Shown here: positions 18,296-53,966 of the stretch, in pieces
How positions within the stretch are numbered: position 1 is the stretch's first letter
How the letters are laid out: the number at the start of each line of letters is the position of its first letter
Origin: Arenicellales bacterium
GTDB taxonomy: Bacteria > Pseudomonadota > Gammaproteobacteria > Arenicellales > JAHEKD01
Direction of reading: 5' to 3'
Assembly (NCBI GenBank): GCA_028284225.1
Contig: JANQSD010000013.1
Coordinates: 136,422 to 200,421 of the forward strand
DNA: 64,000 bases
Notes under the pieces: model-generated
The model's input: only the letters and a program-made list of their open reading frames with translations
What the model was told of the DNA's origin: nothing
The model's database searches: none
Program-made: the position numbers and the translations under genes

Positions 18296-18321
18296 AAAGT
18301 GCCATTTAGAAATGGCACTTT
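18296..18321 (-). terminator. Intercistronic hairpin between the binding-protein and ATPase genes (partial terminator or RNA-stabilising element)
   Basis: Palindrome AAAGTGCCATTT-AG-AAATGGCACTTT read from the sequence. On the minus strand it is followed by TTACTTTT. Confidence 0.5.
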
Positions 18322-18331
18322 ATTAGAACTA

Positions 18332-19432
18332 TTATCCGCCTGTTTTAAAGTTTGTCCAGGCTCTGGTTCTTGCCCGTTCAGCTTTTTTAGGCACTGGAAT
18401 GAGTGGATACATTTGGGTAACCTGTTCTTCAGAAGGATAGGCGGCTTTACTGCTGGTCACTTCTGTATCAACCAGATCGAATGCATCTTTGTTAGCATTG
18501 GCATACCAGGTGTAATTACTGTCACCAGCCGCAACTTCGGGGCGCATCATGTAATTAAGGAACAAGTGGGCATTTTCAACATTTTTAGCGTCGGCCGGAA
18601 TCGCCCAACCATCAGCCCAGAATTGTGCTTTGCCATCGCCTTCCGGTAAAAAGAAATCAAGCACAACACCGGTCTCGGCCTCAGCTGCACCTGCCATAGC
18701 CAATAGGCCATCAGGACCCCAAGTGATCGCAACACAAAATTCCCTTTCCGGCATACGTTGATAAGCATAGTTATCAAAAGTTTTGATATAAGGGCGAACT
18801 TTAGAAAGCATTTCTTCAGCTGCTTTATAGTCTTTTGGATTGGTAGAACTGGGGTCTAGACCCAGGTGCGCCAAAGCCATTGGCATAATATCTGTCGGCG
18901 AATCAAGGAACGAAACACCGCACTCGGCAATTTTCTCCATGTGCTCGGGATTAAACACTAAATCCATTGAACCTATAGGTGCATCAGGATGAACGCTTTT
19001 AACTAATTCTTCATTATAGGTCACGCCATGGGTTCCCCACATGTAAGGGATAATATGTTCATTGCCAGGGTCCCAGTTAGAATTCAATTGCTCCATAATA
19101 TCTGCGCGCATATGCTTCATATTCGGAAGCTTGTTTTTGTCCAGCTTTTGATAGATCCCGGCAGGAATCAAACGTGCATTCATTGAGCTTGCATGACTGA
19201 CCACATCATAGCCGGAATTACCGGCCAGTAATTTTGAGTCTATGGCTTCAACAGAATCGTATACATCATAAATTACCTTGATATTGAATTCCTTTTCAAA
19301 ATTTGCAATCGTCTCTTCGCCAATATATTCGGCCCAGTTAGTAACCCGTAGTTCACCCTCAGCAAATGTAGTTGTTGTAAACCCCAATATTGCAGGAATA
19401 ATCACTATGCCTGCGAATTTTTTAAAATTCAT
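18332..19432 (-). CDS. potF: Periplasmic putrescine/diamine-binding protein (PotF/SpuD-like)
   Basis: 366 aa with a signal peptide. 'RVTNWAEYIGEETIANFEKEFNIKVIYDVYDSVEAIDSKLLAGNSGYDVV' parallels the E. coli PotF N-terminal region as I recall it. Confidence 0.85.
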   Translation of the reverse strand: MNFKKFAGIVIIPAILGFTTTTFAEGELRVTNWAEYIGEETIANFEKEFNIKVIYDVYDSVEAIDSKLLAGNSGYDVVSHASSMNARLIPAGIYQKLDKNKLPNMKHMRADIMEQLNSNWDPGNEHIIPYMWGTHGVTYNEELVKSVHPDAPIGSMDLVFNPEHMEKIAECGVSFLDSPTDIMPMALAHLGLDPSSTNPKDYKAAEEMLSKVRPYIKTFDNYAYQRMPEREFCVAITWGPDGLLAMAGAAEAETGVVLDFFLPEGDGKAQFWADGWAIPADAKNVENAHLFLNYMMRPEVAAGDSNYTWYANANKDAFDLVDTEVTSSKAAYPSEEQVTQMYPLIPVPKKAERARTRAWTNFKTGG

Positions 19433-19526
19433 AGTTTGCTCCGTGTAGTAAGAATAGGATGGTTAAAAAGACTAAAATAATTTAGTTTGACAATCAAGTT
19501 ATAAATACTTAATTCATTACAGATAG

Positions 19527-20711
19527 TTAATGATGGCTAAGCATTAAATGGTTGATTTTAGTAACTTTTCCAGGCGCCGGTTCATTTGCCAAGGTAGCCA
19601 CCGGAATTCTTTGTTGTATCTGTTGATGCAAATGCTTTACACCCTGTTCAAGGGTTGATAGTTGCAGTTTTGGGAAAGCACTGGACTTGATGCCTTTTTG
19701 AATCCAACGGACAAAACTTTCATCCTCCTGTTCTGTTGACTGGTTAATTCGCTGGGTTAAATAGCGCGATAATTTGACTTCACGACGTACATCTGGCAAT
19801 GCGTATGCTGCCCCAATATATTCACTGCAGTCAGGTGAAATGGGAATAGACATGTAATATTCAACCATATCTGGATAAAACCCAATCACCATCGAAGGAA
19901 ATATTCCCGTGTAAAGCCAGAGGCGCTGATAGTCATCAGGCAAATGATCAAAACGTGGCAAAATTTTTTGGTAATGTCTGACACTCCATAGTTTTCCTGG
20001 CTTTTCGTTTATATACCCATAAGACACGGGGATACCATTTTCTATCTCATCGCTATATTGATTACCATAAAGTTGCTGCAACGACGGGTGACCAATTGGA
20101 ACATGATAACCCTCATTATCAATGTCATGAATAATCTTCCAGTTATAAGGGCGTTTCTGCCGATATTTTGTACCCGCAAGCGGCTGGATGTTTTCTAGTT
20201 GATAAGGTACTAATTTCTCTACTAAAGTCCGCATTTGACTTGCCAGACTTTCGCTATTTTCACTGAAATTTATAAATATGAATCCAAACCAGATTTCTAA
20301 CGACAGTTTAACTAAGCCACACTTTTCCTGTTGCAATCCTGGAAAAGTTTCGGCTCTTGGAATATAGCGCACTTGCCCATCTAAATGATAAGACCAACCG
20401 TGAAATGGGCAGACCAGCGCCCTGGGACAGTTTCCATAAGCACCTTCGACAACTTTTGCGCCGCGATGACGACATACATTATGGAAAGCATGAATCGTAA
20501 GGTTTTCATCCCTGATGATTAACGCCCGCTCACCCAGCGCATCAAAAGTCAAATAGTCACCACTGTTAGGAATATCGCTAATATGACCAACTAACAGCCA
20601 GTTCCTTTTGTAAATATATTCCTTTTCAAGTTCAAAGAATTCTTGGTTCCAATATGTCCAGGGCGCTAAGATATCAGTAGTTTCAGGCACAAACGAAGTA
20701 GAATCAGACAT
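19527..20711 (-). CDS. Rieske [2Fe-2S] non-haem-iron oxygenase, alpha-subunit type (second copy)
   Basis: 394 aa. Motifs 'CRHRGAKVVEG...CPFHGWSY' and 'NWKIIHDIDNEGYHVPIGH'. It heads the minus-strand pot operon. Confidence 0.85.
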   Translation of the reverse strand: MSDSTSFVPETTDILAPWTYWNQEFFELEKEYIYKRNWLLVGHISDIPNSGDYLTFDALGERALIIRDENLTIHAFHNVCRHRGAKVVEGAYGNCPRALVCPFHGWSYHLDGQVRYIPRAETFPGLQQEKCGLVKLSLEIWFGFIFINFSENSESLASQMRTLVEKLVPYQLENIQPLAGTKYRQKRPYNWKIIHDIDNEGYHVPIGHPSLQQLYGNQYSDEIENGIPVSYGYINEKPGKLWSVRHYQKILPRFDHLPDDYQRLWLYTGIFPSMVIGFYPDMVEYYMSIPISPDCSEYIGAAYALPDVRREVKLSRYLTQRINQSTEQEDESFVRWIQKGIKSSAFPKLQLSTLEQGVKHLHQQIQQRIPVATLANEPAPGKVTKINHLMLSHH

Positions 20712-21172: not shown

Positions 21173-22837
21173 TCACATATTCGGATAATTAGGCCCGCCA
21201 CCGCCTTCTGGTGTAACCCAGTTGATATTCTGACTCACGTCTTTAATATCGCAAGTCTTACAATGCACGCAGTTCTGGGCATTGATTTGCAGGCGTGATT
21301 GTTCGTCTTCAGTCACTATTTCATATACACCGGCAGGGCAGTAGCGTTGTTCTGGTGCATCGTATTCAGCCAGATTAACCGTAATAGGAATAGCATCATC
21401 CTTTAATGTTAAATGAACCGGTTGATCTTCTTCGTGATTAGTGCTGGACAAAAAGACTGATGATAACTTGTCAAAGCTGACCACACCATCCGGTTTTGGA
21501 TACTCAATAGGGGTACATTCACTTTTAGGTTTCGTTTGAGCCCAGTCAGGTTTGGGATCAGATAATGTCCAGGGTAATTTGCCATTAAAGATATTGATAT
21601 CAATAAATGCATAAGCAGAGCCCCAAAAATTACCATATTTATGTTGGGCAGGGCCAAAATTACGTTGCGCGTGCAGCTCTTTATAAGCCCAACTGTTCTT
21701 ATAAGCCTCGGCAAACTCACTAATTTCATCATTGGCACGTTCTGCACCTAACGCCGAGGCTACGCATTCTGCAGCAATCATTCCTGATTTCATTGCAGTA
21801 TGTGAACCTTTAATCTTTGCAAAATTCAAGGTGCCGGCATCGTCACCAATTAGCAAGCCTCCGGCAAATGTCATTTTTGGTTGAGACTGTAAACCGCCTT
21901 TGACAATCGCTCTTGCACCATAAGAAATTCGTTTGCCGCCTTCAAGAAACTTTTTGATTTCGGGATGATGCTTATAACGTTGAAATTCATCAAATGGACT
22001 GACATAGGTATTGCTATAACTCAAATCAGTAATTAATCCTAGCGCAATCTGATTGTCTTCTATATGGTAAAGGAACCCGCCACCTGCTGATTTACTTTCC
22101 GCCAACGGCCAGCCTGCGCTATGTACTACCAGGCCTTGCTGATGTTTTTCGGCCGGAATTTCCCATAATTCTTTTATACCGATGCCGTAATGCTGTGGAT
22201 CTTTACCTTTATCCAGTTCAAATTTAGAGATCAGTTGTTTACCGAGATGCCCACGGCAACCTTCAGCAAACAGGGTGTATTTACCGCGTAATTCCATACC
22301 CGGCATATAGGAATCCTTTTCCTCGCCTTCTTTGGAAATCCCCATATCGCCCGTAATAATACCCATTACCTCGCCTGATTCACCATAAAGCACTTCAGCA
22401 GCAGTAAATCCGGGGAAAATTTCCGCACCCAGTTCTTCTGCCTGTTCTGCCAACCAGCGGCAAAGGTTGCCAAGACTGATAATATAATTACCTTCATTAT
22501 GCATGGTCTTGGGCACAGCAAAATTAGGTACTTTACTGGCCTTGTCCTTAGATTGCATGAGATAAATTTTATCTTCAGTCACTGCTGTATTAAGCGGCGC
22601 TCCTTTATCTTTCCAATCCGGAATCAATTCATTCAGTGCTGTGGGCTCAAATACGGCGCCTGAAAGAATATGGGCACCAACTTCTGATCCTTTTTCGACG
22701 ACAACAACTGATATGTCATTGCCCGATTGTTCCGCCAGTTGACGCAGTTTTATTGCAGCAGACAGACCGGAAGGACCTGCACCGACAATGACAACATCAT
22801 ATTCCATGTATTCACGTTCAATCTCGTGATCAGACAT
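21173..22837 (-). CDS. Electron-transfer flavoprotein:ubiquinone oxidoreductase (ETF-QO)
   Basis: 554 aa. Motifs 'YDVVIVGAGPSGLSAAI' and C-terminal ferredoxin-like 'CPAGVYE...NCVHCKTCDIKD...INWVTPEGGGGPNY'. Confidence 0.93.
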   Translation of the reverse strand: MSDHEIEREYMEYDVVIVGAGPSGLSAAIKLRQLAEQSGNDISVVVVEKGSEVGAHILSGAVFEPTALNELIPDWKDKGAPLNTAVTEDKIYLMQSKDKASKVPNFAVPKTMHNEGNYIISLGNLCRWLAEQAEELGAEIFPGFTAAEVLYGESGEVMGIITGDMGISKEGEEKDSYMPGMELRGKYTLFAEGCRGHLGKQLISKFELDKGKDPQHYGIGIKELWEIPAEKHQQGLVVHSAGWPLAESKSAGGGFLYHIEDNQIALGLITDLSYSNTYVSPFDEFQRYKHHPEIKKFLEGGKRISYGARAIVKGGLQSQPKMTFAGGLLIGDDAGTLNFAKIKGSHTAMKSGMIAAECVASALGAERANDEISEFAEAYKNSWAYKELHAQRNFGPAQHKYGNFWGSAYAFIDINIFNGKLPWTLSDPKPDWAQTKPKSECTPIEYPKPDGVVSFDKLSSVFLSSTNHEEDQPVHLTLKDDAIPITVNLAEYDAPEQRYCPAGVYEIVTEDEQSRLQINAQNCVHCKTCDIKDVSQNINWVTPEGGGGPNYPNM

Positions 22838-38284: not shown

Positions 38285-40699
38285 ATGAAATCACACGCTC
38301 AGGTTGTTGTAATTGGTGGCGGTGTAGTCGGCTGCAGCGTTCTCTATCATTTGACCAAGTTTGGCTGGACAGATGTGCTGTTGCTCGAACGTTCAGAATT
38401 AACATCTGGCTCAACCTGGCATGCAGCAGGTGGATTCCATACTCTGAATGCGGATACCAATATGGCCGCACTTCAAGGCTACACCATTAAACTCTACAAA
38501 GAATTAGAGGAAATCTCGGGCCAAAGCTGTGGTTTACATCATGTAGGAGGACTGACTTTGGCCACCACTCCCGAGCGCATGGATTTTCTCAAAGCCGAAC
38601 GAGCCAAACATCGTTATATGGGATTGGAAACAGAAATTGTCGGACCGCAGGAAATTTCAAAGCTTTCGCCAATCACTAATACAGAGGGTGTAATCGGTGC
38701 GCTTTACGATCCACTAGACGGTCATCTGGACCCTTACGGCACCACGCATGCTTATGCCAAGGCAGCCAAACTGAATGGCGCTGAGATTCAACTTCGAACA
38801 AAAGTTGAGGCACTCGATCCAAAACCAGACGGAAGCTGGGAAATCGTCACCGACCAGGGCAATATCATAGCTGAATATGTAGTCAATGCGGCTGGTCTTT
38901 GGGCTAGAGAAATTGGTGAAATGGCTGGTGTTTATCTGCCTCTACACCCGATGGAGCACCAATATTTAGTCACAGATGAGATCGATATTATCATCAATCG
39001 TGAGCATGAATTACCACATGTGATGGACCCGACAGGGGAAAGTTATTTACGACAGGAAGGTAATGGATTGGTGATCGGTTTCTATGAACAGGCCTGTGTA
39101 CCTTGGGCGGTTGATGGTACGGATTGGAACTTCGGGCATGAATTATTAGAAGATGATTTAGATCGTATCGGTGATTCGCTGACAATTGCTTATCATCGCT
39201 TTCCGGTGTTAGAAACTGCAGGCTTAAAGCGTGTTATCAATGGCCCGTTTACCTTTGCACCGGATGGTAATCCGTTGGTTGGTCCGGTACCGGGGCTAAC
39301 AAATTTCTGGTCAGCGTGTGCCGTGATGGCAGGGTTTAGCCAGGGAGGTGGTGTTGGATTAACGCTTGCAGAATGGATGGTAGAAGGGCAGCCGTCACGT
39401 GATGTCTTCGCCATGGATGTGGCCCGGTTTGGCGACTATTGCACCAAGGACTACACCCGAATTAAAGTAACTGAGAACTATCAACGTCGTTTTGCCGTTT
39501 CTTACCCCAATGAGGAATTGCCGGCAGGCCGACCATTACATACCACACCTGCGTACGATATCTGGAAACAGCAAAACGCCGTTTTTGGCCAGGGATATGG
39601 CCTAGAGCATGTAAATTACTTTGCGCCAGCCGGCGAAGAACCGTATGAAATTCCCAGCTTTAGACGTTCTAATGCATTTGCCACTGTCAGCGAAGAGTGC
39701 AGAACCGTCAGAGAGGCAGTCGGCTTAAATGAAATCCATAATTTCAGCAAATTCAAAATCACCGGGGGAAATGCCCGGGCCTGGCTGGATAAAATCATGG
39801 CCGGACGAATTCCAAAACCAGGAAGAATTGCCTTAACGCCCATGTTAAACCATAAAGGTTTTTTGATAGGTGATTTCACCATCATGAATCTAGGTGATGG
39901 TGGCTTTCAACTGACAGCTTCTTATTCAGCTCAGGCCTTTCATCAGCGTTGGTTTGAGCAACATATGCAAGAGGGTGTTGAAATTGAAAATATTTCGCTG
40001 AATAAAATCGGCTTTCAAATTGCCGGACCTAAGGCAAGGGAATTATTATCTCGGATAACCGACTATGACGTATCACATGACAATTTCAAATTTTTGTCGG
40101 TTAAAGAAATTAACCTTGGGGATATAAGTGCTTTAGTTGCCCGAGTCAGCTATACCGGCGATCTTGGTTATGAAATCTATGTAGATGCAGAGCAACAACC
40201 AAAGCTATATGAACTTTTAACGACGGCAGGGCAGAATTTAGGACTTAAACCTTTTGGTATGCGGGCAATGATGAGCCTGCGCCTGGAAAAATCATTTGGC
40301 TCCTGGATGAATGAATTCAAGCCTGACTATACAGCCGCGGAGACAGGGCTAGATCGCTTTATCGATTTTGACAAGCCTGTGGCATTTATAGGTAAACAGG
40401 TTGCTACCGCTGAAAGGAATAACCCGCCGGCAAGACGGTTATGTACCATGATTGTTGAAGCCGATGATGCGGATGTCTGGGGTTATGAACCGGTCTGGAA
40501 AAATAACAAAGTCATTGGTTTTGTCACTTCAGGTGGCTACGCACACTATTCACAACAAAGTGTGGCTTTTGCACTGTTACCCAGAGAATTGATTAGCGAT
40601 GGAGAAGAATTTGAAATCGAAATCCTGGGCGAGCTCAAAAAAGCCCGGGTTTTTACTGAAACACTGTTTGATCCGCAATCATTAAGGCTTCGTAGTTAA
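38285..40699 (+). CDS. Dimethylglycine/sarcosine-dehydrogenase-family protein (DAO flavin domain fused to a GcvT-like folate domain)
   Basis: 804 aa. Motifs 'VVVIGGGVVGCSVLYHL' and 'SGSTWHAAGG' (position of the covalent-FAD His in DMGDH). The C-terminal half has 'SYTGDLGYEIY'. Confidence 0.85.
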   Translation: MKSHAQVVVIGGGVVGCSVLYHLTKFGWTDVLLLERSELTSGSTWHAAGGFHTLNADTNMAALQGYTIKLYKELEEISGQSCGLHHVGGLTLATTPERMDFLKAERAKHRYMGLETEIVGPQEISKLSPITNTEGVIGALYDPLDGHLDPYGTTHAYAKAAKLNGAEIQLRTKVEALDPKPDGSWEIVTDQGNIIAEYVVNAAGLWAREIGEMAGVYLPLHPMEHQYLVTDEIDIIINREHELPHVMDPTGESYLRQEGNGLVIGFYEQACVPWAVDGTDWNFGHELLEDDLDRIGDSLTIAYHRFPVLETAGLKRVINGPFTFAPDGNPLVGPVPGLTNFWSACAVMAGFSQGGGVGLTLAEWMVEGQPSRDVFAMDVARFGDYCTKDYTRIKVTENYQRRFAVSYPNEELPAGRPLHTTPAYDIWKQQNAVFGQGYGLEHVNYFAPAGEEPYEIPSFRRSNAFATVSEECRTVREAVGLNEIHNFSKFKITGGNARAWLDKIMAGRIPKPGRIALTPMLNHKGFLIGDFTIMNLGDGGFQLTASYSAQAFHQRWFEQHMQEGVEIENISLNKIGFQIAGPKARELLSRITDYDVSHDNFKFLSVKEINLGDISALVARVSYTGDLGYEIYVDAEQQPKLYELLTTAGQNLGLKPFGMRAMMSLRLEKSFGSWMNEFKPDYTAAETGLDRFIDFDKPVAFIGKQVATAERNNPPARRLCTMIVEADDADVWGYEPVWKNNKVIGFVTSGGYAHYSQQSVAFALLPRELISDGEEFEIEILGELKKARVFTETLFDPQSLRLRS

Positions 40700-43427: not shown

Positions 43428-44285
43428 TCAAATCAATGATTGACGAACTGTCTGTAAATAGATTTCTCTTAGTTTTAAAGTCAGTTCACCCGGCTTGCCG
43501 TCAGTGATAGTTTGATCATCGACTCTGGTCACCGGAATGATATAGCTTGAGGCACCGGTAATGAATGCTTCATCAGCATCATATACATGCTCCAGTTTGA
43601 ATTTGCACTCAGAAATTTCAAGCTTGTTTTGTTCAGCCAAAGTGACCACAGCTTTCCTTGTCACTCCAGGTAAAATTTTATTTGAGAGGGGACGAGTCAT
43701 AATCATCTTATTCTTAATCATAAAAAAACTGGTAGCACCACCTTCTGTAACAAAACCATCTTCGTCAATTAACAGCGCCTCATAGGCACCTGATTCACAG
43801 GCTTGTTGCTTGGCCAAAACCTGACCAAGGAGATTGACAGATTTAATATCACGCCTAGCCCAACGCAGATCTTTGCAGCTGGATAACTTAACACCGTGAT
43901 TTTCATATTTATGCTCTGTATTAGGTTTGGCTTGAGTAAACATAAAGACAGTAGGCGTTAACCCTTGTTGCCAGACAAAATCACGTTCTGCTTCACCTCT
44001 GGTGATCTGCATATAGACCAAGCCTTCTTGGAGCGTGTTTAATGAAACCAGTTTTCTATAAGCAACCAAAATTTCATCTTCAGTCAACGGTGATTCGATA
44101 GACAATGCCGCTAACGAATTTTTAAGTCGAGCCATATGATTAGAAAAATCAATCAATTTACCGTCTAAAACACCAGCCACTTCATAGACAGCGTCGCCAA
44201 ATAATAGCCCCCGATCAAAAATTGATACCTTTGCCCGCTGCGGAGCTAAATATTCACCATTTAAATATACTGTACGCGTCGCCAT
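43428..44285 (-). CDS. Class-IV aminotransferase, D-amino-acid aminotransferase-like
   Basis: 285 aa. Motifs 'VYLNGEYL...AKVSIFDRGLLFGDAVYEV', 'RWARRDIKSVNLL' and 'EGGATSFF'. Confidence 0.8.
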   Translation of the reverse strand: MATRTVYLNGEYLAPQRAKVSIFDRGLLFGDAVYEVAGVLDGKLIDFSNHMARLKNSLAALSIESPLTEDEILVAYRKLVSLNTLQEGLVYMQITRGEAERDFVWQQGLTPTVFMFTQAKPNTEHKYENHGVKLSSCKDLRWARRDIKSVNLLGQVLAKQQACESGAYEALLIDEDGFVTEGGATSFFMIKNKMIMTRPLSNKILPGVTRKAVVTLAEQNKLEISECKFKLEHVYDADEAFITGASSYIIPVTRVDDQTITDGKPGELTLKLREIYLQTVRQSLI

Positions 44286-44287
44286 CT

Positions 44288-45730
44288 TTAGTGCCTTAAA
44301 AACTGTCCAGGACGGTGTTCAGTTGAGGCGCCGTGCTGCCATACAGGTTTACCATTTACAAATACACTATGAATACCCTTGGTTGGCTGTTCCGGATCAT
44401 CAAAATCGGCCAAATCTTCAATGGTTTGTGAATCGAAAATAACCATGTCAGCATAATATCCGGGTTTGAGTAAACCGCGATCTTTGAGCGTAAATGTTTG
44501 AGCGCTTAGCCCGGTCATTTTATGTATTGCCTGCTCAAGTGTTAACAGTTTTTGCTCACGTACATAGCGTTTCAAAACCCTTGGAAATGTTGCCCAAAGC
44601 CGGGGATGCGGTTTTTCATGGCCAGGTAATCCATCAGAACCGATCATGGTGCTTGGATAACTCATAATTCGTTTTAAATCTTCTTCATCCATTTGAAAAT
44701 AAATGGCGCCGGCTGGATAAAGCTTCTGTGCTGCCTGCTTTTGACTGCAATTCCAAGCTAAAGCTATTTCACCCAATAGACGGCCGTTCTGTTCCGGATG
44801 AGGCTTGGACCAGCTTACAATCACTTTTTCAGCATTATCAATAAAGCGTGGTAGCAGCGTTGTCGAGCTAGCGATATACGGATAAACATCCAGAGCGACG
44901 TCTTGACCGTTTTCCTGGGCAAGCCTGATTTTTGCTAATGTCTCAACGCTACGACCATAATTTTTGGGACCCGCACACTTGTGATGAGAAATAACAATAG
45001 CTGTCTTTGACTTCTTACCAATGACTAATGCTTCTTCAACAGCCTCAAGCACACCATCACATTCATCGCGTATGTGCGAGGTATAGATCGCCGACTCAAA
45101 CTCATTCAAAACCTTGGCTAATTCAATAATTTCGTCAGTAGATGATTGCAGGGCAGGTGGGTAATCCAGTCCAGTACTTAAACCTATACAGCCTTGTTGC
45201 AACGCCAGCTTCAGGTCTGCTTTCATTTGGTTGAGTTCAGATTCTTCAGCTGTTCGCTCAAATCCACTATTCATGGCCTTAACACGCAATGAACTATGAC
45301 CCGCTAACAGGGCAACATTGGTAGCGGCCGGGGACGTTTCAAATTTATCGCGATAATCCGAGACACGGGGAAAAACGAAATCCTTTTGTTCACCCAGCAA
45401 CGGAAAAGGAGCTGGAAATTCTCCTTGAGCTTGAAATGGAGCCAGGCTAATACCACAATTACCGGCCACTACTGTAGTGACACCCTGCGAAACCTTGAAG
45501 GGCATAGCAGGTGTTTTTAATAATGCTGAATCATCATGGGTATGAACATCGATAAAACCCGGTGAAACACACCAGCCGTTGGCGTCAATTTTCTCATCCG
45601 CCTGATAGTGATTTAGCGCTCCGATTTCGATAATTCGATCTGTTTCTATAGCAATATCAGCTTGGTAGGCTGCATTACCGCTGCCATCAATAATAGTGGC
45701 GTTAGTAATCTTAAGGTGGCAGCGGGGCAT
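44288..45730 (-). CDS. N-acyl-D-amino-acid deacylase (D-aminoacylase) family amidohydrolase
   Basis: 480 aa. Motifs 'ATIIDGSGNAAYQADIAIETDRIIEIG...VSPGFIDVHTHDD' and 'QGVTTVVAGNCGISLAP'. Confidence 0.8.
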   Translation of the reverse strand: MPRCHLKITNATIIDGSGNAAYQADIAIETDRIIEIGALNHYQADEKIDANGWCVSPGFIDVHTHDDSALLKTPAMPFKVSQGVTTVVAGNCGISLAPFQAQGEFPAPFPLLGEQKDFVFPRVSDYRDKFETSPAATNVALLAGHSSLRVKAMNSGFERTAEESELNQMKADLKLALQQGCIGLSTGLDYPPALQSSTDEIIELAKVLNEFESAIYTSHIRDECDGVLEAVEEALVIGKKSKTAIVISHHKCAGPKNYGRSVETLAKIRLAQENGQDVALDVYPYIASSTTLLPRFIDNAEKVIVSWSKPHPEQNGRLLGEIALAWNCSQKQAAQKLYPAGAIYFQMDEEDLKRIMSYPSTMIGSDGLPGHEKPHPRLWATFPRVLKRYVREQKLLTLEQAIHKMTGLSAQTFTLKDRGLLKPGYYADMVIFDSQTIEDLADFDDPEQPTKGIHSVFVNGKPVWQHGASTEHRPGQFLRH

Positions 45731-47031
45731 TAACCCAAAACCGAAAAACTGCTATCCGGGTTAATTTCACGATTACGAGAGAAAAAACCCAGGTTTAAAT
45801 CAAAACCAATATGCTTGAGGCGAAAATGTACCGGGTTCGAATCATGGTCACGACCGTTTTCACATTCTGAAATTAGCTTAGCCATCATTTCACCGGCAAT
45901 TGGTGCATTTTTGTATTGGTTACCACTGGTACCACAGGCCATGTAAAAGCCCTTAACAAAACTTTTATCATAGATCGGTATCCAGTCCTCAGTCACATCA
46001 TAAAGCTCAACCACACCTTTTGCCTGCCCGGGAATTTCCATATCCGTAACCCGTTGTGCAGCACGCATTGCTAAGGTATTCCAGTGTGAACTAAAGTTAC
46101 GATCAAAATCATCCGGATCTACCCATTCTTTGTTATCACAATCTGGGTCTTCACTACCAACCAGAATATGATTGCCAATTTCCGGTCTTAGATAAGCACC
46201 GATATCATTATCGGACACCACACAACCATCATGTTCAAAATCATAAGCTTTAGGCGCAGGGACATGGGCAACCTCATGACGCAAGGCTCGAGTAGAAATT
46301 TTCATGTCAGCGGTAACACCGGCCATTTCATTAATAATTGAAGAATGGGGGCCAGCAACATTAACAAGGACGCTAGTACTAATAATTTGCTCAGCGTTTA
46401 ATATCACAGCGGTAATTTGGTTACTTGTTATCTGGATATCAGTAACAGCAGTATTAAATCTGAACTCGACACCTGCAGCTTCGGCTGCACATTGAACATT
46501 ATGTGCCGATAATTGCGGGTCACTAACGTAACCACCGTGCGGGAAAAATACAGCACCTGTAACCGTGCTGCCATTGGAAGTACCGAAATCCGGGTGCTCG
46601 GGGGGCTTGGCTGGTGTATAGGATTTCATGTTGATTAAGGGCAAACGTTCCTGCACCTGGTCAGTGGTTAATTCTTCATAAGGACAACCGATCTCATCCA
46701 TGATTTTTATAGTCGGTTTTAGATGCCCGTTTTCTTCGGTTTTCATCACCAGGCAACCACAATCATGATAGATTACATTGCCTTTTTCATCCTCTAAACC
46801 TAGATATTGGTCCCAGTTTTTCCAGTAAAAATGACTTTCATAGGCTAAGGCTGAACCTTCTACAGTTGAATAATAGGGTCTAATAATGGCACATGAACCA
46901 CTGGTCGAACCATAACCTGCAGCCGGCAGTTTATCGACACAGAGTGTTTTGTAACCTGACATAGCTAATTGGTAAGCTGTTGATGTACCAATAATTCCTG
47001 CACCGATGACTACAGCATCGTAATTACTCAT
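45730..47031 (-). CDS. DAO-family FAD-dependent oxidoreductase (sarcosine-oxidase-beta / D-amino-acid-dehydrogenase-like)
   Basis: 433 aa. 'YDAVVIGAGIIGTSTAYQLA' is present. Its stop shares 1 nt with the D-aminoacylase start (TAATG). Confidence 0.8.
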   Translation of the reverse strand: MSNYDAVVIGAGIIGTSTAYQLAMSGYKTLCVDKLPAAGYGSTSGSCAIIRPYYSTVEGSALAYESHFYWKNWDQYLGLEDEKGNVIYHDCGCLVMKTEENGHLKPTIKIMDEIGCPYEELTTDQVQERLPLINMKSYTPAKPPEHPDFGTSNGSTVTGAVFFPHGGYVSDPQLSAHNVQCAAEAAGVEFRFNTAVTDIQITSNQITAVILNAEQIISTSVLVNVAGPHSSIINEMAGVTADMKISTRALRHEVAHVPAPKAYDFEHDGCVVSDNDIGAYLRPEIGNHILVGSEDPDCDNKEWVDPDDFDRNFSSHWNTLAMRAAQRVTDMEIPGQAKGVVELYDVTEDWIPIYDKSFVKGFYMACGTSGNQYKNAPIAGEMMAKLISECENGRDHDSNPVHFRLKHIGFDLNLGFFSRNREINPDSSFSVLG

Positions 47032-47045
47032 AATAACTCCATTAT

Positions 47046-48566
47046 TTACAAGCTGGGTGCACCGCCCTCAGCTTTGCGCTTTTGAACAAATTCATCTAAC
47101 TGCTCAGCACAATCTTGTTCCAGCAAAGGCTCGTTATATTCGGCAAGCAATTGTTTCCAGATTTTGTTTGCTTTTTGTGTTGCTGTGACTTCGCCATTCT
47201 CCTGCCAGGTTTCGAAGTTACTCCAATCTGAAACCAGGGGGCTATAAAATGCATGCTCATAACGCTCGATAGTATGAGCCGATTGAAAAAAGTGGTTACC
47301 CGGGCCGACTTCATCGATGGCTTTTACTGCTAGCTCATCCTCAGCAAATGATAACGGCTGCAAATATTCTGACATCATTTGTAGCATCTCAGCATCCAGA
47401 ATTACTTTCTCATAGTTAGCACAAAGCCCGCCTTCCAGCCATCCCAGGCCATGCATGATTAAATTAATATGACCGTTAATACATGACCATAAAGACATTT
47501 GCGATTCGTAAACAGATTGCGCATCAGGTGCGTTGGATGCATTCGCATTCGACGCACGCAGAGGTATCTGATATTTGCGTGCCAATTGTCCACTGATAAC
47601 AGTGGCCTTAGCGTATTCAGGTGTCCCGAACGCGGGTGAACCCGACTTCATATCTACGTTTGAAGTAAAACTGCCATACATAACCGGACAACCAGGATTG
47701 ACTGCCTGGGCAAAGGCTATACCGGCCAGGGCTTCAGCATTCTGTTGTACTAATGCACCTACCACAGTTACGGGGGCCATTGCCCCGGCCAGGGTAAACG
47801 GTGTAAAGGCCACAGGTTGACCGCGTCTCACCATTGATAACACCCCTTGCAACATTGGAATATCATATTGAAGCGGTGAATTAGCATTAACAATTGTGAT
47901 CAACGAGGGTTGTTCTTGTAACGTTTGTTCATCAATGCCGCGAATGATTTTTGCGATTTCAAGACCATCATTAATACGAACATCACCCAGGGCATAGGCG
48001 TATAAAGGTTTATCTGTCAGTGTTGCCAAGGCTGCAATTGCATCCAGATGGCGTGTGGTCGGCGGCAAGTCAATCGGCTCTACAGGATAGCCGGCAATCA
48101 AATGAGTTGTATTTAAACTTTGCCCAAGCTTGAGCAAATTACAATAATCATGAAAATTTCCAGTTCGCCGGCCTTTATCCAGACAAGAAACATTCGGAGT
48201 GCTTGCGACCATAGAGAAGTTAACTGCATTTTCACCAAAGAACAGGTTATGACCAGCATTTCTTGCATGCAGCGTAAAACTTGGAGGCGCTTTACTGACC
48301 AACTCTATTAATAGATCCGGGTCAAATCTAACCCGCTCACTACCGGTTTCTGTTTGTGCACCGGCTTGTTTCAAAATCTCGCGTGCTTCAGGTAGCAAAA
48401 ACCGCATGCCTGTATCACGTAAAAGCGCTAAAGAAGCATGATGAATCGCCTCTATTTCATCTTCAGAAGCAATCGCTAAGGCGGGATAGGGATTACGTAA
48501 ATGCCGATAAGGAAGCTGCTTTATTGAGTTTGATTCTCTGGGGTTTCTGCGTGCTCGGCGTACCAT
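47046..48566 (-). CDS. Trimethylamine-methyltransferase (MttB) superfamily protein, non-pyrrolysine type
   Basis: 506 aa with an uninterrupted frame (no in-frame UAG). 'SEDEIEAIHHASLALLRDTGMRFLLPEAREILKQAGAQ...RVRFDPDLL' matches the MttB-family N-terminus. Length is typical. Confidence 0.8.
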   Translation of the reverse strand: MVRRARRNPRESNSIKQLPYRHLRNPYPALAIASEDEIEAIHHASLALLRDTGMRFLLPEAREILKQAGAQTETGSERVRFDPDLLIELVSKAPPSFTLHARNAGHNLFFGENAVNFSMVASTPNVSCLDKGRRTGNFHDYCNLLKLGQSLNTTHLIAGYPVEPIDLPPTTRHLDAIAALATLTDKPLYAYALGDVRINDGLEIAKIIRGIDEQTLQEQPSLITIVNANSPLQYDIPMLQGVLSMVRRGQPVAFTPFTLAGAMAPVTVVGALVQQNAEALAGIAFAQAVNPGCPVMYGSFTSNVDMKSGSPAFGTPEYAKATVISGQLARKYQIPLRASNANASNAPDAQSVYESQMSLWSCINGHINLIMHGLGWLEGGLCANYEKVILDAEMLQMMSEYLQPLSFAEDELAVKAIDEVGPGNHFFQSAHTIERYEHAFYSPLVSDWSNFETWQENGEVTATQKANKIWKQLLAEYNEPLLEQDCAEQLDEFVQKRKAEGGAPSL

Positions 48567-48667
48567 TAAGAACCTTTAAAAAATTGATTTAGATGCTGCA
48601 ATATTAGCTTTTTGTTTTGAAAATATCGATAACAAAATGACAGAATTTATGCGTATTTTTTACCCAC

Positions 48668-48701
48668 AAATAAAAAGAGGGCTTTCATATAGAAAGCCCT
48701 C
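48668..48701 (-). terminator. Rho-independent terminator after the usp gene
   Basis: GAGGGCTTTC-ATATA-GAAAGCCCTC is a perfect 10-bp stem. On the minus strand it is followed by TTTTTATTT. It starts 20 nt after the stop at 48722. Confidence 0.75.
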
Positions 48702-48721: not shown

Positions 48722-49171
48722 TTATCTTACAACGGTAACAGAACACTCAGCATGGCGAGCTACACGAGCTGAGTTAGGACCAAGCAAAAAGTCTGCCAGT
48801 GAAGGCCGATGCGCACCCATGACGATTTGATCAATATTCAAATCTTTGGCTGCTTCTACAATTTCACGATAGACCGTGCCATTTTCAACAATAACACCAG
48901 CTTGCAACTCAGTAGGAATATGCTCATTAGCAATTTCTCTAAGCTTTTCTGCAGCTTCATCTTTCCATTGTTGCATAGGGTATTCGGTTGATCCATGCAT
49001 CTCACCGCGTATTGCGTAACGTTGGTCAATCCCAGTTGTAATTCCTGAAATTACAGTCATCAGATAGATTTTGGCACCTTCATTGCCAGTTGCCATAGCA
49101 ACTGTCTTACCAATCACATCTTTCCAGGACTCCTCATCAGCAAGATCGATGGCTGCTAAATAATTAGACAT
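48722..49171 (-). CDS. Universal stress protein (UspA family)
   Basis: 149 aa. C-terminal 'IVMGAHRPSLADFLLGPNSARVARHAECSVTVV' is typical of Usp. Confidence 0.85.
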   Translation of the reverse strand: MSNYLAAIDLADEESWKDVIGKTVAMATGNEGAKIYLMTVISGITTGIDQRYAIRGEMHGSTEYPMQQWKDEAAEKLREIANEHIPTELQAGVIVENGTVYREIVEAAKDLNIDQIVMGAHRPSLADFLLGPNSARVARHAECSVTVVR

Positions 49172-49195: not shown

Positions 49196-51097
49196 TTAAT
49201 CGCCATCTTCAGGCATGGTGAATTTACGCGGACTAGGCAGCATGCATATATAAATCATCCAAATGGCAAATGCTATAGCCAGGATATTCATGATTGAAAT
49301 ATCAATACTAAACGGCAATGATTTATCTGCCACTTCAATAGTTGGAATTAAGGAAGCATGTTTCGGTAAAGCTGGATCAATAACATCGCTGGCACCGATT
49401 GCTTCACGTATAGAAGATACTTCACCCGCACTAACCGGCACTACTCCTGCTTCACTCGTGCCAGCTGTGCCAGGGCCAACTTCACCGGCATCTTGAACAC
49501 GCTCGACTGGACCAGCCAATACAACCTGTGTACTAACACTGGAGACAGGTTGATATTGAGCGTTATAGGTACGTGCAGGGATTGTAGCCGGACGGATAAA
49601 ACTGAAATTTGCTGTATGACCGCCTTCAGCCCACTCGTCCAGGCTGACTAAGCCAATGGCTGCATTGACCAAAGCACCGCTCACTTCACGATCTCCCTGA
49701 GGAGCCATGACGAATACACCATCGCCGTCACCATTAACTAAACTAGCAACTTGATCTGCAACACCTGCATCAGAGTTTACAACTTCAACACTTTCAGATG
49801 AACCTAGTGAGCTAAGAATCATGGCTAAAACATTTGCGGAGCTTGAACCAACAGGGCCTGTAATGATTTTACTCATATCCCCAATAGATTTAGCACCTCC
49901 ACGAAGGGCGATCAAATGCGCAGATTTATAACCTAAGACGGCAAACGCCTCAGCATTATTCTTGGCAACAGGGCCGCTATCTCCCAAAGCATAGAAAGTT
50001 TCAGCACCTACCATAGCTACTCGGGCACTCCCATCCGATAAGGCAGCTAATGGTGTAGCAGTATTTGATAACTCAAGATCATTGCCTGAAAATCCGGCTC
50101 GAATCGCTCTTAGAGCCTTAGCTGTAGTGCTACTCGCACCAACGCTTGGGTCTGCTGCTACAAGTAATTTGTCAGCACCGCCACCGCCAGCACCCTCAGG
50201 CAGTAAACCTTTAGACACAAGGTAGTTTGTTGCCACAGACGCGGGTGTTTGAGCATCCAGGTCTACAGCCTTATTCATCGCCTGCATATCAGCTGCGCTG
50301 ATTGCACCGGCGAGTTTCTCTAATACAGTTGATAATCCTGGCACCGCAGAAAGCGCATCAGAACGCACTAACGGTGCAGCCTCGTAAATGGGGAAAAAAC
50401 GTTTATCATCTTCCAACACGATCAAGTCGTACTCGGCAATCTGACCATCAGTTGCAAAAAGTTCAGCCACATCGGCAGAGCCATCAAGCAATGCGGAAAT
50501 TTGCTGATCTTTACCTTCCGTGCCAGTTGGAAATGGCAGTGAACTGCTACCGGAAATACCATAATGACGGTTCATTTGCTGTAATCCATCAGCGGGACGT
50601 TCAAGAAAGTCCTGCTCAACAGCGAAGGTTACAGGGTCAGTCAGTCCAGCCAGGTCACTGATCTTGGTAACACCTAGTTCTTGTGCCCGATCAGCACTCA
50701 TGGTCATGACATAGTCATTAGAAAAACCGAAACTGCCAGCTAATTGAAGTCCCTGGGACTCAAATAACTTATTAACAGTTTCTGTAGTTTTAGCGCTATC
50801 ACTACTTGGTGCCTGACCAAGAAAAGTTAGGCTTGTACCATTATATTCTGGATAAACATCGACAATACCTTGTTTAGCAGCTTCCATGACGGTTGACGTA
50901 AAACCGTAAGACAGATTACGTGTTACGTCTATGCCTTCGTTCTCTGCTAATTGAGCAATCATTTCAGCTAATACTTCGCTTTCAGTGAACGGTTTAGAAC
51001 CGACACTTAAACTTGGTTTTTCTTCAGCACAACCAATCAGAACAACTGAAAACAGGGCAATTGTGAAATATTTAAAGTATTTATTTAACATTATCAT
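49196..51097 (-). CDS. Membrane-anchored double substrate-binding protein: OpuCC/OsmF-type quaternary-amine SBP domain, TAXI-like SBP domain, C-terminal TM helix
   Basis: 633 aa with lipobox 'VVLIGC'. Residues about 30-300 resemble the YehZ/OpuCC family (VGSKPFTESEVLAEMIAQL, DVYPEYNGTS, FFPIYEAAPLVR). Residues about 310-560 resemble TAXI-type receptors (ATIPARTYNAQ...). The C-terminal hydrophobic stretch is 'IMNILAIAFAIWMIYICML'. Confidence 0.65.
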   Translation of the reverse strand: MIMLNKYFKYFTIALFSVVLIGCAEEKPSLSVGSKPFTESEVLAEMIAQLAENEGIDVTRNLSYGFTSTVMEAAKQGIVDVYPEYNGTSLTFLGQAPSSDSAKTTETVNKLFESQGLQLAGSFGFSNDYVMTMSADRAQELGVTKISDLAGLTDPVTFAVEQDFLERPADGLQQMNRHYGISGSSSLPFPTGTEGKDQQISALLDGSADVAELFATDGQIAEYDLIVLEDDKRFFPIYEAAPLVRSDALSAVPGLSTVLEKLAGAISAADMQAMNKAVDLDAQTPASVATNYLVSKGLLPEGAGGGGADKLLVAADPSVGASSTTAKALRAIRAGFSGNDLELSNTATPLAALSDGSARVAMVGAETFYALGDSGPVAKNNAEAFAVLGYKSAHLIALRGGAKSIGDMSKIITGPVGSSSANVLAMILSSLGSSESVEVVNSDAGVADQVASLVNGDGDGVFVMAPQGDREVSGALVNAAIGLVSLDEWAEGGHTANFSFIRPATIPARTYNAQYQPVSSVSTQVVLAGPVERVQDAGEVGPGTAGTSEAGVVPVSAGEVSSIREAIGASDVIDPALPKHASLIPTIEVADKSLPFSIDISIMNILAIAFAIWMIYICMLPSPRKFTMPEDGD

Positions 51098-51103: not shown

Positions 51104-52663
51104 TTATGCTGTTTCTTCAGGTGTATGTCCAACCGGCATGACCTCACGCACTTTAGTGCTGGACTCTTTAACCATATGATCATCACGCACAATTCTAAAG
51201 AAAGCGATCAGCTGCATAATAATGATGATCGTAAACGGAATTGCTCCGGTAATAGCCATGGCTTTGGCCACCGTGACGCTCTCTGTAACAATTGTAGAGA
51301 CTGTCAATGCAGTAATTATCAATCCCCATGTAAGCTTTAACTTAGTTGGTGGATTCAAGCTACCATTGCTTGTCATCATACTAATTACGAATGTACCCGA
51401 ATCAGCACTTGTTACCAGAAAGATAAATATTAAACATACTGATAAGAAGTTAAGAATTGTAGTGCCGGGGAAATATTCAAAAAAGCCGAATAGTGCCGCT
51501 GACACATCCGCGAAAACTAAAGGTGCAACACCTCCATCACCAAACATTTGGATATGAATGGCTGCGCCACCGAAACATGCAAACCAAAGCATTGAAGCAA
51601 TAGTTGGCACGCCTACAACGAAAGTCACAAACTCTCTGATGGTTCGGCCGCGACTAATTCTTGCCACGAAAATTCCCACAAACGGACCCCAGGCTAACCA
51701 CCAGATTAAATAAGTTAATGTCCAACCATGAAACCAGTTCCAACTACCAAAATCAGTATAGCTATAGGTCTTAAACGACAGTGGTATTAATGCAAACAGA
51801 TAATCACCGATTGAATAAATAAAAACTTGCAGCAAGTATGCTGTGGGGCCACCAAACAATACCACAAGCATGATCGCCACAGCTGTCAACATGTTGATGT
51901 TACTTAAAATCTTGATGCCTTTATCCACACCTGTGCAAGCTGACAATAAGAAACAAACGGTCATCACAACTATTATGATCATACTCATGGTAACACTTTG
52001 ATCTGTCCCAAACACTGAGTGCATACCAGATCTAACCATTAAAGTGCCCATTGCTAAGGAACCTGCCAACCCAAAAATAACGGACAATACAGCTAGAATA
52101 TCAGCAGTGCTACCCAAAGCATTCAAGGTACCGCGGCTGAATACATTTTTGAAACCAACCAAGATGGGTGTTGATACCATAGAGGGAAGGTTGAGCCTAA
52201 AAGTGAAGTAAGCAATTACCAAGGCACAACAACCGTAGATTGACCAAGCATGAAAACCCCAGTGCAAATTAGTCAACACAAATGCATTTCTGGCAGCAGA
52301 GGCTGTTTCACCTGGTTCATCGGGTGGTGTCATGAAATGATAGATGGGTTCTGCCACTCCCCAGAACAACAGACCTGAGCCCATCCCTGCAGCAAATAAC
52401 ATTGCCACCCAGGAACCAGTGCTAAATTCAGGCACTTCATCATCACCGCCCAATTTGATCTTGCCGTACTTACTAAATCCCATATATCCCATGATTACAA
52501 GGAAAGCTGTACAGAGAAATAAGTAAAACCAATCTAATGATGTTAGAACATAGTTCACTAAACCTTGTGCAGAACCGGTCATTGAGTCGGGGTCTATTAA
52601 GCCCCAGGCACCAATGCCGCCGCATAAAATCAGTGAAATTAACATGGTCTTGTTCATAGGCAA
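51104..52663 (-). CDS. BCCT-family (betaine/carnitine/choline) transporter
   Basis: 519 aa with 12 TM segments. 'GFHAWSIY' and the Trp-rich 'WNWFHGWTLTYLIWWLAWGPFVGIFVARISRGRTIREF' are BCCT signature regions. Confidence 0.9.
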   Translation of the reverse strand: MPMNKTMLISLILCGGIGAWGLIDPDSMTGSAQGLVNYVLTSLDWFYLFLCTAFLVIMGYMGFSKYGKIKLGGDDEVPEFSTGSWVAMLFAAGMGSGLLFWGVAEPIYHFMTPPDEPGETASAARNAFVLTNLHWGFHAWSIYGCCALVIAYFTFRLNLPSMVSTPILVGFKNVFSRGTLNALGSTADILAVLSVIFGLAGSLAMGTLMVRSGMHSVFGTDQSVTMSMIIIVVMTVCFLLSACTGVDKGIKILSNINMLTAVAIMLVVLFGGPTAYLLQVFIYSIGDYLFALIPLSFKTYSYTDFGSWNWFHGWTLTYLIWWLAWGPFVGIFVARISRGRTIREFVTFVVGVPTIASMLWFACFGGAAIHIQMFGDGGVAPLVFADVSAALFGFFEYFPGTTILNFLSVCLIFIFLVTSADSGTFVISMMTSNGSLNPPTKLKLTWGLIITALTVSTIVTESVTVAKAMAITGAIPFTIIIIMQLIAFFRIVRDDHMVKESSTKVREVMPVGHTPEETA

Positions 52664-53111: not shown

Positions 53112-53966
53112 ATGAATGTTGAAAACATTAAAGCCTTTCTGGAAGTCGCATCAACCGGAAGCTTCCAACAGGCCGCCGAGAACATGCACATCACACAATC
53201 CACCATGAGTGCAAGAATAAAAAGTCTCGAAGAGTCTATCAATAGGCAATTATTTATACGCAAGCGCACTGGCGCTGTTTTAACTCCAGGAGGAAAGAAT
53301 TTTTTTCGCTATGCGGTTACTGTAGTCAAAACTTGGGAAAGGGCACGTACAGAAGCTTCGTTACCGGAAAATATTGAATCTATTGTCGGTCTGGGATTAC
53401 AGCTGAATCATTTAGAGGACGTTGGTCAAAAATGGACACAGTGGATCAGTAATGAGGCACCTAATGTCGCCACACAAATTAAATCTGATTATTCAGATCG
53501 ATTAATGAATCAATTGCGCAACGGGTTCTTAGATATTGCAATTGTCTATGATCCGCAAAAAAGCCCGGAAGTCGAAATTCAACGATATAAAACTGAGAAG
53601 CTGGTTTTGGTTTCAACCGAACCGAGATTATTTCAACAGGGCAAAGTGGATGATTATATATTTGTAGATTGGGGAGAAAGTTACAGAGCGGATCATAATC
53701 GCATATTCGTAGAAGGTTCGTACCAGACCATGGAAATTTCAATCGCATCTGTGGCTCTAAACTACATCCTGGGACACGGAGGTTCCGGATATTTTCTAGA
53801 AAGCCAGGTATTGCCATTAATACAACAGCAAAAATTGTTTCGAGTCGATGACTCTGTAGCCATGTACATCAATTTATTCATGGTATTTAATGTTGACCGG
53901 AAAAACGATTACTCAGTAAAAATTGCTATAGATGGATTAAATGCGATTAAAGAGATGCGGGAGTAA
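53112..53966 (+). CDS. LysR-family transcriptional regulator
   Basis: 284 aa. N-terminal HTH 'IKAFLEVASTGSFQQAAENMHITQSTMSARIKSLEE'. It is divergent from the BCCT cluster. Confidence 0.9.
   Translation: MNVENIKAFLEVASTGSFQQAAENMHITQSTMSARIKSLEESINRQLFIRKRTGAVLTPGGKNFFRYAVTVVKTWERARTEASLPENIESIVGLGLQLNHLEDVGQKWTQWISNEAPNVATQIKSDYSDRLMNQLRNGFLDIAIVYDPQKSPEVEIQRYKTEKLVLVSTEPRLFQQGKVDDYIFVDWGESYRADHNRIFVEGSYQTMEISIASVALNYILGHGGSGYFLESQVLPLIQQQKLFRVDDSVAMYINLFMVFNVDRKNDYSVKIAIDGLNAIKEMRE

Follow-up and report, generated by a model that had tools for sequence, protein, structure and literature searches.

What is the role of a compact operon that places a methyltransferase of the MttB superfamily directly ahead of genes for D-amino-acid metabolism? 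The operon lies in a 64,000-nt stretch of contig JANQSD010000013.1 (positions 136,422-200,421); we refer to this whole stretch as the window, and all coordinates are relative to it. The host belongs to a lineage of uncultured gammaproteobacteria with 42% G+C and genomes of ~4-5 Mb, in which a few close relatives share 82-90% identity in threonyl-tRNA synthetase (ThrRS) and the next matches, at ~70%, are Thiohalophilus, Candidatus Competibacter, and gammaproteobacterial metagenome-assembled genomes (MAGs). We consider it moderately likely that the locus serves betaine uptake and demethylation in an aerobic gammaproteobacterium, with corrinoid partners encoded in trans and accessory modules lodged behind the methyltransferase gene; on this best reading, the locus is ordinary in kind and belongs to the known aerobic, cobalamin-dependent type. 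The genes of the operon are as follows:

47046 to 48566, minus strand: non-pyrrolysine MttB-superfamily methyltransferase, 506 aa (PF06253)
45730 to 47031, minus strand: FAD flavoprotein of the DAO fold, 433 aa (PF01266)
44288 to 45730, minus strand: N-acyl-D-amino-acid deacylase (D-aminoacylase) family protein, 480 aa (Amidohydro_3)
43428 to 44285, minus strand: fold-type IV D-amino-acid transaminase, 285 aa (class IV aminotransferase; NF005209)

These four open reading frames (ORFs) follow one another with intergenic gaps of 14, -1, and 2 nt; GGAG precedes the DAO start, the DAO and acylase genes overlap in a TAATG stop/start, and AAGG precedes the transaminase start. A first-pass annotation of this DNA had reported the same packing and assigned the same gene families (non-pyrrolysine MttB, DAO fold, D-aminoacylase, D-amino-acid transaminase), and both hold, the former by the ORFs and their junctions and the latter by Pfam and NCBIfam models.

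The methyltransferase matches PF06253 over its full length (E value of 5.4e-185; residues 3-502 on profile positions 5-500 of 500) and aligns with PDB structures 4yyc (E value of 1.6e-92) and 2qne (E value of 2.1e-91). Its ORF of 507 codons contains a sole stop, the terminal TAA, and no in-frame amber, so it encodes a non-pyrrolysine member of the superfamily; with TIGR02369, the equivalog model for the pyrrolysine type, it reaches 298 bits, short of the 525 required. It is 35% identical to Desulfitobacterium hafniense MtgB and 36% identical to 4yyc. In the MtgB-glycine betaine complex, the cation-pi contacts come from Y97 and F356 and the carboxylate is held by R312 and H348, and across characterized quaternary-amine enzymes R312 is conserved while the aromatic pair is variable (PMC13080624). 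The window protein keeps the carboxylate-binding R312 and H348 (MtgB numbering), as do 91 of the 98 MttB-like sequences taken from the loci for active-site comparison, and it lacks the aromatic pair, with Ala at the Y97, Gly at the F356, and Trp at the I352 position (signature ARHWG). The form A/G-R-H-W-G recurs in 85 of the 98. For comparison, the Y97A substitution in D. hafniense MtgB raises the Km ~340-fold (PMC13080624). A carboxylated quaternary amine is well supported as the predicted substrate, and the protein is probably a betaine:corrinoid methyltransferase.

A second clade, with the signature YRHWG, is nearer to bona fide MtgB (45% identity) than is the A/G-RHWG clade. Paralogues of both stand in tandem ahead of a DMGDH-like gene in locus L053 (7-3082), and both are present in L058 (232-11774), where the YRHWG copy adjoins MtgC and a homocysteine S-methyltransferase. 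The side-by-side occurrence of the two clades suggests different substrates feeding one corrinoid system.

Beyond the end of the operon lies a gene that had escaped the first-pass annotation, and a candidate electron acceptor system is encoded farther off:

38285 to 40699, plus strand: dimethylglycine dehydrogenase (DMGDH), 804 aa, with the Pfam architecture DAO-FAO_M-GCV_T
21173 to 22837, minus strand: electron transfer flavoprotein (ETF)-ubiquinone oxidoreductase (ETF-QO), with Fer4_ETF_QO and ETFQO_UQ-bd domains

The DMGDH gene is convergent with the operon, 2.7 kb beyond its end, and its product matches rat and human DMGDH over the full length (E value of 4e-186). Among the best 80 genome matches to MttB (loci L002-L081, our distant comparison set), DMGDH homologues were found by tblastn in 35; in 34 of the 80, the homologue (49-73% identity) shares the strand of the MttB orthologue and begins <3 kb downstream of it. 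DMGDH is a conserved and presumably functional partner of this MttB clade. Other recurrent neighbors in the same set are a PhnD-like binding protein (18 loci), an M24 creatinase/prolidase-like protein (17), a class III aminotransferase (16), a major facilitator superfamily (MFS) transporter (15), and an S9 prolyl oligopeptidase (12); these recurrent neighborhoods largely reflect Mesorhizobium synteny, and no Rhodobacteraceae occur among the 80 matches. The ETF-QO would be the expected electron outlet for an ETF-linked DMGDH, its tie to the locus being loose; together with the Rieske oxygenases of the window, it points to an aerobic lifestyle.

The DAO protein had been placed with the D-amino-acid enzymes, and in this respect the initial assignment does not stand, the acylase and the transaminase being of D-amino-acid type as proposed. 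Its best NCBIfam matches are N-methyltryptophan oxidase (92 bits against a cutoff of 257) and sarcosine oxidases, all far below their cutoffs, and its best PDB match is 1y56_B (E value of 6e-14). A role as D-amino-acid oxidase or dehydrogenase was considered and rejected, the two DadA models scoring 49 and 24 bits against cutoffs of 383 and 494. Homologues (52-81% identity) sit beside MttB and DMGDH in four loci (L001, L011, L048, and L069). The protein is probably an N-methyl-amino-acid (sarcosine-type) oxidase or dehydrogenase, and together with MttB and DMGDH, a sarcosine-oxidase-like flavoprotein would make up a set suited to three N-demethylations in sequence.

Upstream of the operon lie genes for uptake and probable regulation:

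49196 to 51097, minus strand: 633-aa lipoprotein-like fusion substrate-binding protein (SBP), OpuAC (PF04069, residues 29-293) plus TAXI/NMT1-like (PF16868, residues 398-528)
51104 to 52663, minus strand: BCCT-family betaine transporter (PF02028, E value of 2e-156; TIGR00842 above cutoff)
53112 to 53966, plus strand: LysR-family regulator (HTH_1 and LysR_substrate), divergent from the BCCT gene

Against the model NF047988 (glycine betaine uptake BCCT), the transporter scores 486 bits, below the cutoff of 650. The N terminus of the SBP fusion ends in LIGC, which resembles a lipobox, and the protein is conserved at 79-82% identity in the relatives L082, L084, L098, and L100. The LysR gene is syntenic in L082, L098, and L100 (79-93% identity) and absent from L084; its product is the probable regulator of the locus. 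BCCT transporters need no binding protein. The OpuAC/TAXI fusion lies between the BCCT gene and the universal stress protein gene usp, and sensor, scavenger, and BCCT partner are its candidate roles. The betaine-uptake context proposed from the BCCT and OpuAC-type SBP genes is thereby upheld. Because DMGDH, BCCT, and OpuAC genes are all present at the locus, glycine betaine is the parsimonious candidate substrate.

If the enzyme is a corrinoid-dependent methyltransferase, its partners would be expected somewhere in the genome. In the 64-kb window, no B12-binding, pterin-binding, or RACo gene was detected by all methods combined, namely, a Pfam scan of window ORFs together with precomputed Pfam families for the genes at 274-5647, a hidden Markov model (HMM) of MtgC-type proteins against all six-frame window ORFs of at least 60 aa, and tblastn searches with MtgC, MtgD, and RACo of locus L017. 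The Pfam, HMM, and tblastn results agree on this point with the first-pass annotation. Nor was any corrinoid protein, methylcorrinoid:tetrahydrofolate methyltransferase, or activase found in seven close-relative loci. That annotation had further treated the missing corrinoid partner, and an unknown methyl acceptor, as unusual, which does not hold up, for unlinked partners are the published norm in aerobic proteobacteria (PMC12478193) and an orthologue is operonic with the full set. This orthologue, 59% identical to the window's MttB, comes from a Geminicoccaceae MAG (L017), where an operon at 9938-16186 encodes it together with a B12-binding plus B12-binding_2 protein, DUF1638, a Pterin_bind methyltransferase, and a RACo activase, and it provides a reference for the corrinoid dependence of this MttB clade. 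Within 10 kb of MttB in the 80 distant loci, MtgC-type genes occur in 6 (five by a simple B12-motif regular expression, with L017 added by the HMM), DUF1638 in 6, RACo in 4, MtgD in 2, and homocysteine S-methyltransferase in 14.

Glycine betaine demethylation in Ruegeria pomeroyi requires MtgC (SPO2160) and MtgD (SPO1863), which are encoded apart from the PF06253 genes SPO2108 and SPO2134 and are shared with a split methionine synthase; up to 7 PF06253 paralogues per genome share MtgC and MtgD, and different methylated substrates have been proposed for them (PMC12478193). In light of these unlinked partners, an MttB gene without adjacent partners conforms to a known pattern in aerobic proteobacteria, and the gene for the corrinoid partner of the window's enzyme most likely lies at another locus of the genome, the arrangement seen in other aerobic bacteria.

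The acylase and transaminase, in contrast to the DAO protein, resemble characterized D-amino-acid enzymes. The acylase aligns with structures 9g5m (E value of 1e-143), 1m7j (4e-135), and 3gip (1e-131), its top structural relative being a characterized D-acylase; it keeps the binuclear metal site and the catalytic residues of the Alcaligenes faecalis D-aminoacylase (EC 3.5.1.81; H67, H69, C96, H220, H250, and D366), and its motifs DVHTHDD, GNCGIS, THIRDE, ISHHK, and GSDG align with 1m7j and 9g5m. The transaminase scores 343 bits with NF005209 (D-amino-acid transaminase; cutoff of 320) and 247 with the equivalog TIGR01121 (cutoff of 277), and it matches 1daa with an E value of 3e-52. The catalytic K145 and E177 of the Bacillus enzyme are retained, as are Y31 and R98 of its alpha-carboxylate trap, and Phe replaces H100 of that trap, such that its substrate range may be atypical. 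As predicted from these motifs, the two enzymes form a coherent, self-sufficient two-step route from N-acyl-D-amino acids to 2-oxo acids.

The distribution of this pair is narrow. By tblastn, no acylase homologue lies beside MttB in any of the 80 distant loci, and the single transaminase match among them (L068) is 38% identical, on the opposite strand, and ~7 kb from MttB. The closest acylase with recoverable context outside the genus-level group is in L101, from a different lineage (GC of 0.52), where an MFS transporter gene, an acylase gene (64% identity), and a transaminase gene (59%) occur with no MttB, BCCT, or DAO. More distant acylase homologues adjoin genes for a racemase, a pyridoxal phosphate enzyme, an ornithine cyclodeaminase, or a peptidase, never MttB, and a metagenome scan with the acylase returned only relatives of at most 57% identity, none with a transaminase or MttB neighbor. 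Between the window and L098, the acylase is 82% and the transaminase 78% identical, comparable to the 80-95% of flanking genes, and the pair was therefore probably inherited from a common ancestor. A recent foreign origin on compositional grounds was rejected, since GC and third-position GC (GC3) are unremarkable; GC3 of the pair is 0.35-0.37, inside the 0.31-0.41 of neighboring genes.

Six loci from close relatives were recovered (L001, L082, L083, L084, L098, and L100), with MttB 85-90% identical to that of the window, and they differ in what follows the methyltransferase gene:

Window and L099: order thrS…mltF-(LysR)-BCCT-SBP-Usp-MttB…DMGDH-gltX; behind MttB, the DAO, acylase, and transaminase genes
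L084: window synteny; behind MttB, none of these, the Na+/H+ exchanger gene being directly next
L082: window synteny; behind MttB, the DAO gene only
L098 (a circular 5.05-Mb contig): window synteny; behind MttB, the acylase and transaminase genes, with no DAO gene
L100: window synteny; behind MttB, the acylase and transaminase genes, with no DAO gene
L001 and L083: a different context; behind MttB, the DAO and DMGDH genes

An acylase behind MttB is confined to the window and L099, L098, and L100, and the DAO gene and the acylase-transaminase pair vary independently among the syntenic relatives. Neighborhood conservation, which the first-pass annotation had put forward as a check, thus extends to the BCCT-SBP-Usp-MttB segment in L082, L084, L098, and L100 and breaks down in the mosaic of genes behind MttB; the proposal that one pathway joins MttB to the D-amino-acid enzymes fares poorly, given that gain or loss of the DAO gene is independent of that of the pair and that the pair stands alone in L101. 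Downstream of the operon's final stop codon, the window and L084 share homologous sequence, which places the ends of the insertion or deletion at gene boundaries. The slot behind the operon is a rearrangement hotspot.

L100 carries, at 10424-14179 just behind the transaminase gene, two DDE transposase genes flanking fragments of the Na+/H+ exchanger gene and a DUF2238 gene, as well as ~800 nt of extra sequence between usp and MttB. L084 and the window are 75% identical in ThrRS and 70% in MltF, compared with 95% in BCCT, 94% in the Na+/H+ exchanger, 93% in Usp, and 90% in DMGDH, a contrast that suggests that the betaine locus recently recombined or was exchanged between lineages.

The region between usp and MttB contains the candidate signals for separate expression of the operon:

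48722 to 49171, minus strand: universal stress protein gene usp (PF00582), 89-95% identical in syntenic relatives
48677 to 48701, minus strand: intrinsic-terminator-like hairpin 3' of usp, with a 10-bp stem of which 6 pairs are G-C, followed by a T run (TTTTTATTTG)
48598 to 48632, minus strand: conserved promoter-like element of 35 nt (TTATCGATATTTTCAAAACAAAAAGCTAATATTGC), with a candidate -10 sequence TAATAT at 48606-48601; its function is predicted

The hairpin, which confirms the terminator reported earlier behind usp, is conserved in L082, L084, and L098. As for the operon's own promoter, a scan for the sigma-70 consensus returned none in the 155-nt usp-MttB gap, and to that extent the original claim went unmatched. 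The 35-nt element with TAATAT, in turn, is nearly invariant in an alignment of the window with L082, L084, L098, and L100, where the flanking intergenic sequence diverges, and this conservation supports a promoter belonging to the operon despite the empty consensus scan. Inside the operon, counts of promoter and terminator consensus matches equal the shuffle expectation and so are uninformative on internal signals. No terminator was detected 3' of the transaminase gene, and transcription may therefore continue into the Na+/H+ exchanger gene, 138 nt downstream; the four genes would be cotranscribed. Rfam models over the window identified only an FMN riboswitch and one tRNA, and a cobalamin, tetrahydrofolate, or glycine riboswitch near the operon was rejected on that basis. 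The FMN riboswitch (1594-1739, minus strand; 122 bits) is upstream of the DMRL synthase gene ribH (1062-1523), an ordinary arrangement.

We propose the following scheme for the locus. A carboxylated quaternary amine would enter through the BCCT transporter, with the OpuAC-type lipoprotein helping or sensing, and MttB would transfer a single N-methyl group onto a separate corrinoid protein of the MtgC type in its Co(I) state. A pterin-binding methyltransferase of the MtgD/MtgA type would pass the methyl group to tetrahydrofolate, and a RACo-type activase would keep the corrinoid reduced, with the genes for all three outside the window and presumably elsewhere in the genome. The dimethyl product could then be oxidatively demethylated by the neighboring DMGDH, with electrons flowing to ETF and on to ETF-QO, and the 433-aa DAO flavoprotein may take off the last methyl group in a sarcosine-oxidase-like step. 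The D-aminoacylase and transaminase would convert N-acyl-D-amino acids to D-amino acids and these to 2-oxo acids; as a cassette acquired by one sublineage, they would ride the betaine promoter and remain outside betaine catabolism.

Several observations weigh against this scheme or parts of it. The window MttB is without both cation-pi residues of D. hafniense MtgB, it is just 35-36% identical to MtgB and 4yyc, and the paralogue clade found beside MtgC in L058 is the other, 4yyc-like YRHWG one; on these three grounds, glycine betaine is not secure as the substrate. The role given to the DAO protein draws on weak homology and four co-occurrences, and the host's MtgC, pterin-binding, and RACo genes are predicted from a view limited to the 64-kb window. 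Moreover, the pair has been retained right behind MttB, with junctions of the translational-coupling type, in three genomes that have diverged to 78-82% identity, a retention compatible with a functional link. The first of these concerns leads to an alternative that we rate as rather unlikely, in which the architecture and corrinoid mechanism are the same and the substrate is another carboxylated quaternary amine (a proline, alanine, beta-alanine, or other small betaine), from whose backbone the DMGDH-like enzyme and the DAO flavoprotein would strip the remaining methyl groups. The prevalence of the A/G-R-H-W-G signature, in the window protein as in 85 of the 98 sequences, speaks for it, as do the clade's 35-36% identity to MtgB and 4yyc, its coexistence in L053 and L058 with a YRHWG paralogue closer to MtgB (45%) and MtgC-adjacent in L058, and the proposal of different methylated substrates for paralogues (PMC12478193). 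Glycine betaine, however, is by far the most abundant such marine substrate (PMC12478193), the conserved neighbor matches mammalian DMGDH over its full length (4e-186), the nearest NCBIfam model for the BCCT transporter is of the glycine betaine type, and the clade shows no conserved association with a racemase, a cyclodeaminase, or any other backbone-specific enzyme.

That all four genes form a single pathway, with a demethylated betaine backbone of N-acyl-D- or D-amino-acid type passing through deacylation and transamination and with a methyl acceptor other than a canonical corrinoid protein, we regard as improbable. The tight packing, with its 1-nt overlap and 2-nt gap, would be accounted for, as would a pair located immediately downstream of MttB or DAO in three diverged genomes (those of the window, L098, and L100), the lack of any compositional mark of recent foreign origin, and the lack of corrinoid genes within 64 kb. 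However, MttB occurs without the pair in L082, L084, L001, and L083 and in all 80 of the more distant loci, the pair occurs without MttB in L101, and the DAO gene and the pair vary independently of one another; in addition, the DAO protein is not of the D-amino-acid-oxidase type, the L017 orthologue is operonic with a complete corrinoid/tetrahydrofolate system, and DMGDH is the conserved enzyme downstream, its products leading to glycine, which is achiral. A related long shot is that the ARHWG-type MttB clade demethylates a betaine other than glycine betaine and that in this lineage the backbone or a co-occurring conjugate is released as an N-acyl-D- or D-amino acid, which, if true, would constitute a new betaine route joining cobalamin-dependent demethylation to D-amino-acid chemistry. 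Least probable of all, and in our judgment very unlikely, is an MttB that works without a dedicated corrinoid protein, whether on the cobalamin domain of MetH, on free cobalamin, or in a role other than methyl transfer. It would agree with the missing partner genes of the window and the seven close-relative loci, and MtgB does methylate free cob(I)alamin in vitro (PMC13080624); against it, loss of MtgC or MtgD abolishes glycine betaine use in R. pomeroyi (PMC12478193), several genomes show linkage of clade members with MtgC, RACo, DUF1638, and MtgD, and MttB is 85-90% identical among relatives whose ThrRS is 75-90% identical, which shows that the gene is not decaying. We thus retain betaine uptake and demethylation with trans-encoded corrinoid partners as the favored account.

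A second, larger catabolic cluster occupies 5039-14873, 15320-20711, and 21173-22837 of the window. It encodes two Rieske oxygenases, one of them GbcA-like (300 bits; model cutoff, 670), along with the ETF-QO, a 690-aa flavoprotein of OYE plus Pyr_redox_2 architecture, and two CrtI/amine-oxidase-like paralogues of 529 and 522 aa whose genes are adjacent. The cluster also includes genes for a TetR regulator, a class III aminotransferase, a rhodanese, an ABC importer made up of four genes, and a GcvT-like folate-binding protein that stands alone and whose best model is the C-terminal part of trimethylamine N-oxide demethylase. The cluster looks like another methylated-amine or polyamine pathway.

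Nonpyrrolysine MttB homologues are very abundant in aerobic proteobacteria, and few of their substrates are known. Under the favored account, the present locus would bring a gammaproteobacterium into the scheme of aerobic, cobalamin-dependent betaine demethylation that was described recently, and it defines a large MttB clade (A/G-R-H-W-G, usually DMGDH-adjacent) of predicted betaine methyltransferases. It also calls for caution in neighborhood-based prediction of function, as the tight operon of one genome resolves into three independently varying modules among sister genomes.

Among known systems, the HpbD pathway for hydroxyproline betaine and proline betaine reportedly shows that betaine catabolism can use D-configured intermediates and flavoprotein N-demethylases; its first demethylation is said to be performed by Rieske oxygenases rather than MttB, and it is said to include no acylase or D-transaminase. 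Unlike that pathway, the window contains no HpbD-type racemase. The acylase has the metal-binding and catalytic motifs of the characterized D-aminoacylase, and the transaminase has K145, E177, Y31, and R98 of the Bacillus D-amino-acid transaminase, with Phe at the H100 position; it is the placement of such a pair within a betaine operon that is unusual. MtpB, MtcB, MtyB, and MthB of Eubacterium limosum, compared here by their published descriptions, belong to the same nonpyrrolysine superfamily and are described as taking different carboxylated or acidic quaternary amines and sharing one corrinoid protein (PMC8604678, PMC12155760); R312 is conserved in these enzymes and the aromatic pair is not (PMC13080624). 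Their host is described as an anaerobic acetogen with a Wood-Ljungdahl pathway, unlike that of the window.

The D. hafniense MtgB/MtgC/MtgA system (PDB 2qne and 9yce; PMC13080624) resembles the window's in superfamily, TIM-barrel family, and R312 plus H348, and it differs in that the window MttB is 35% identical, has Ala for Y97 and Gly for F356, lacks adjacent corrinoid and tetrahydrofolate genes, and comes from an aerobic host. From MtgBCD(E) of R. pomeroyi DSS-3 (Mausz et al. 2025, PMC12478193), the locus differs in its deep-branching gammaproteobacterial host, in mtgC and mtgD genes that are predicted rather than located in the window's genome, and in the D-aminoacylase/transaminase operon tail, for which no counterpart is described in that system. 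The two have in common a PF06253 methyltransferase of a multiparalogous family in an aerobic proteobacterium, nonadjacent partners, a BCCT transporter, and genes for dimethylglycine and sarcosine demethylation nearby.

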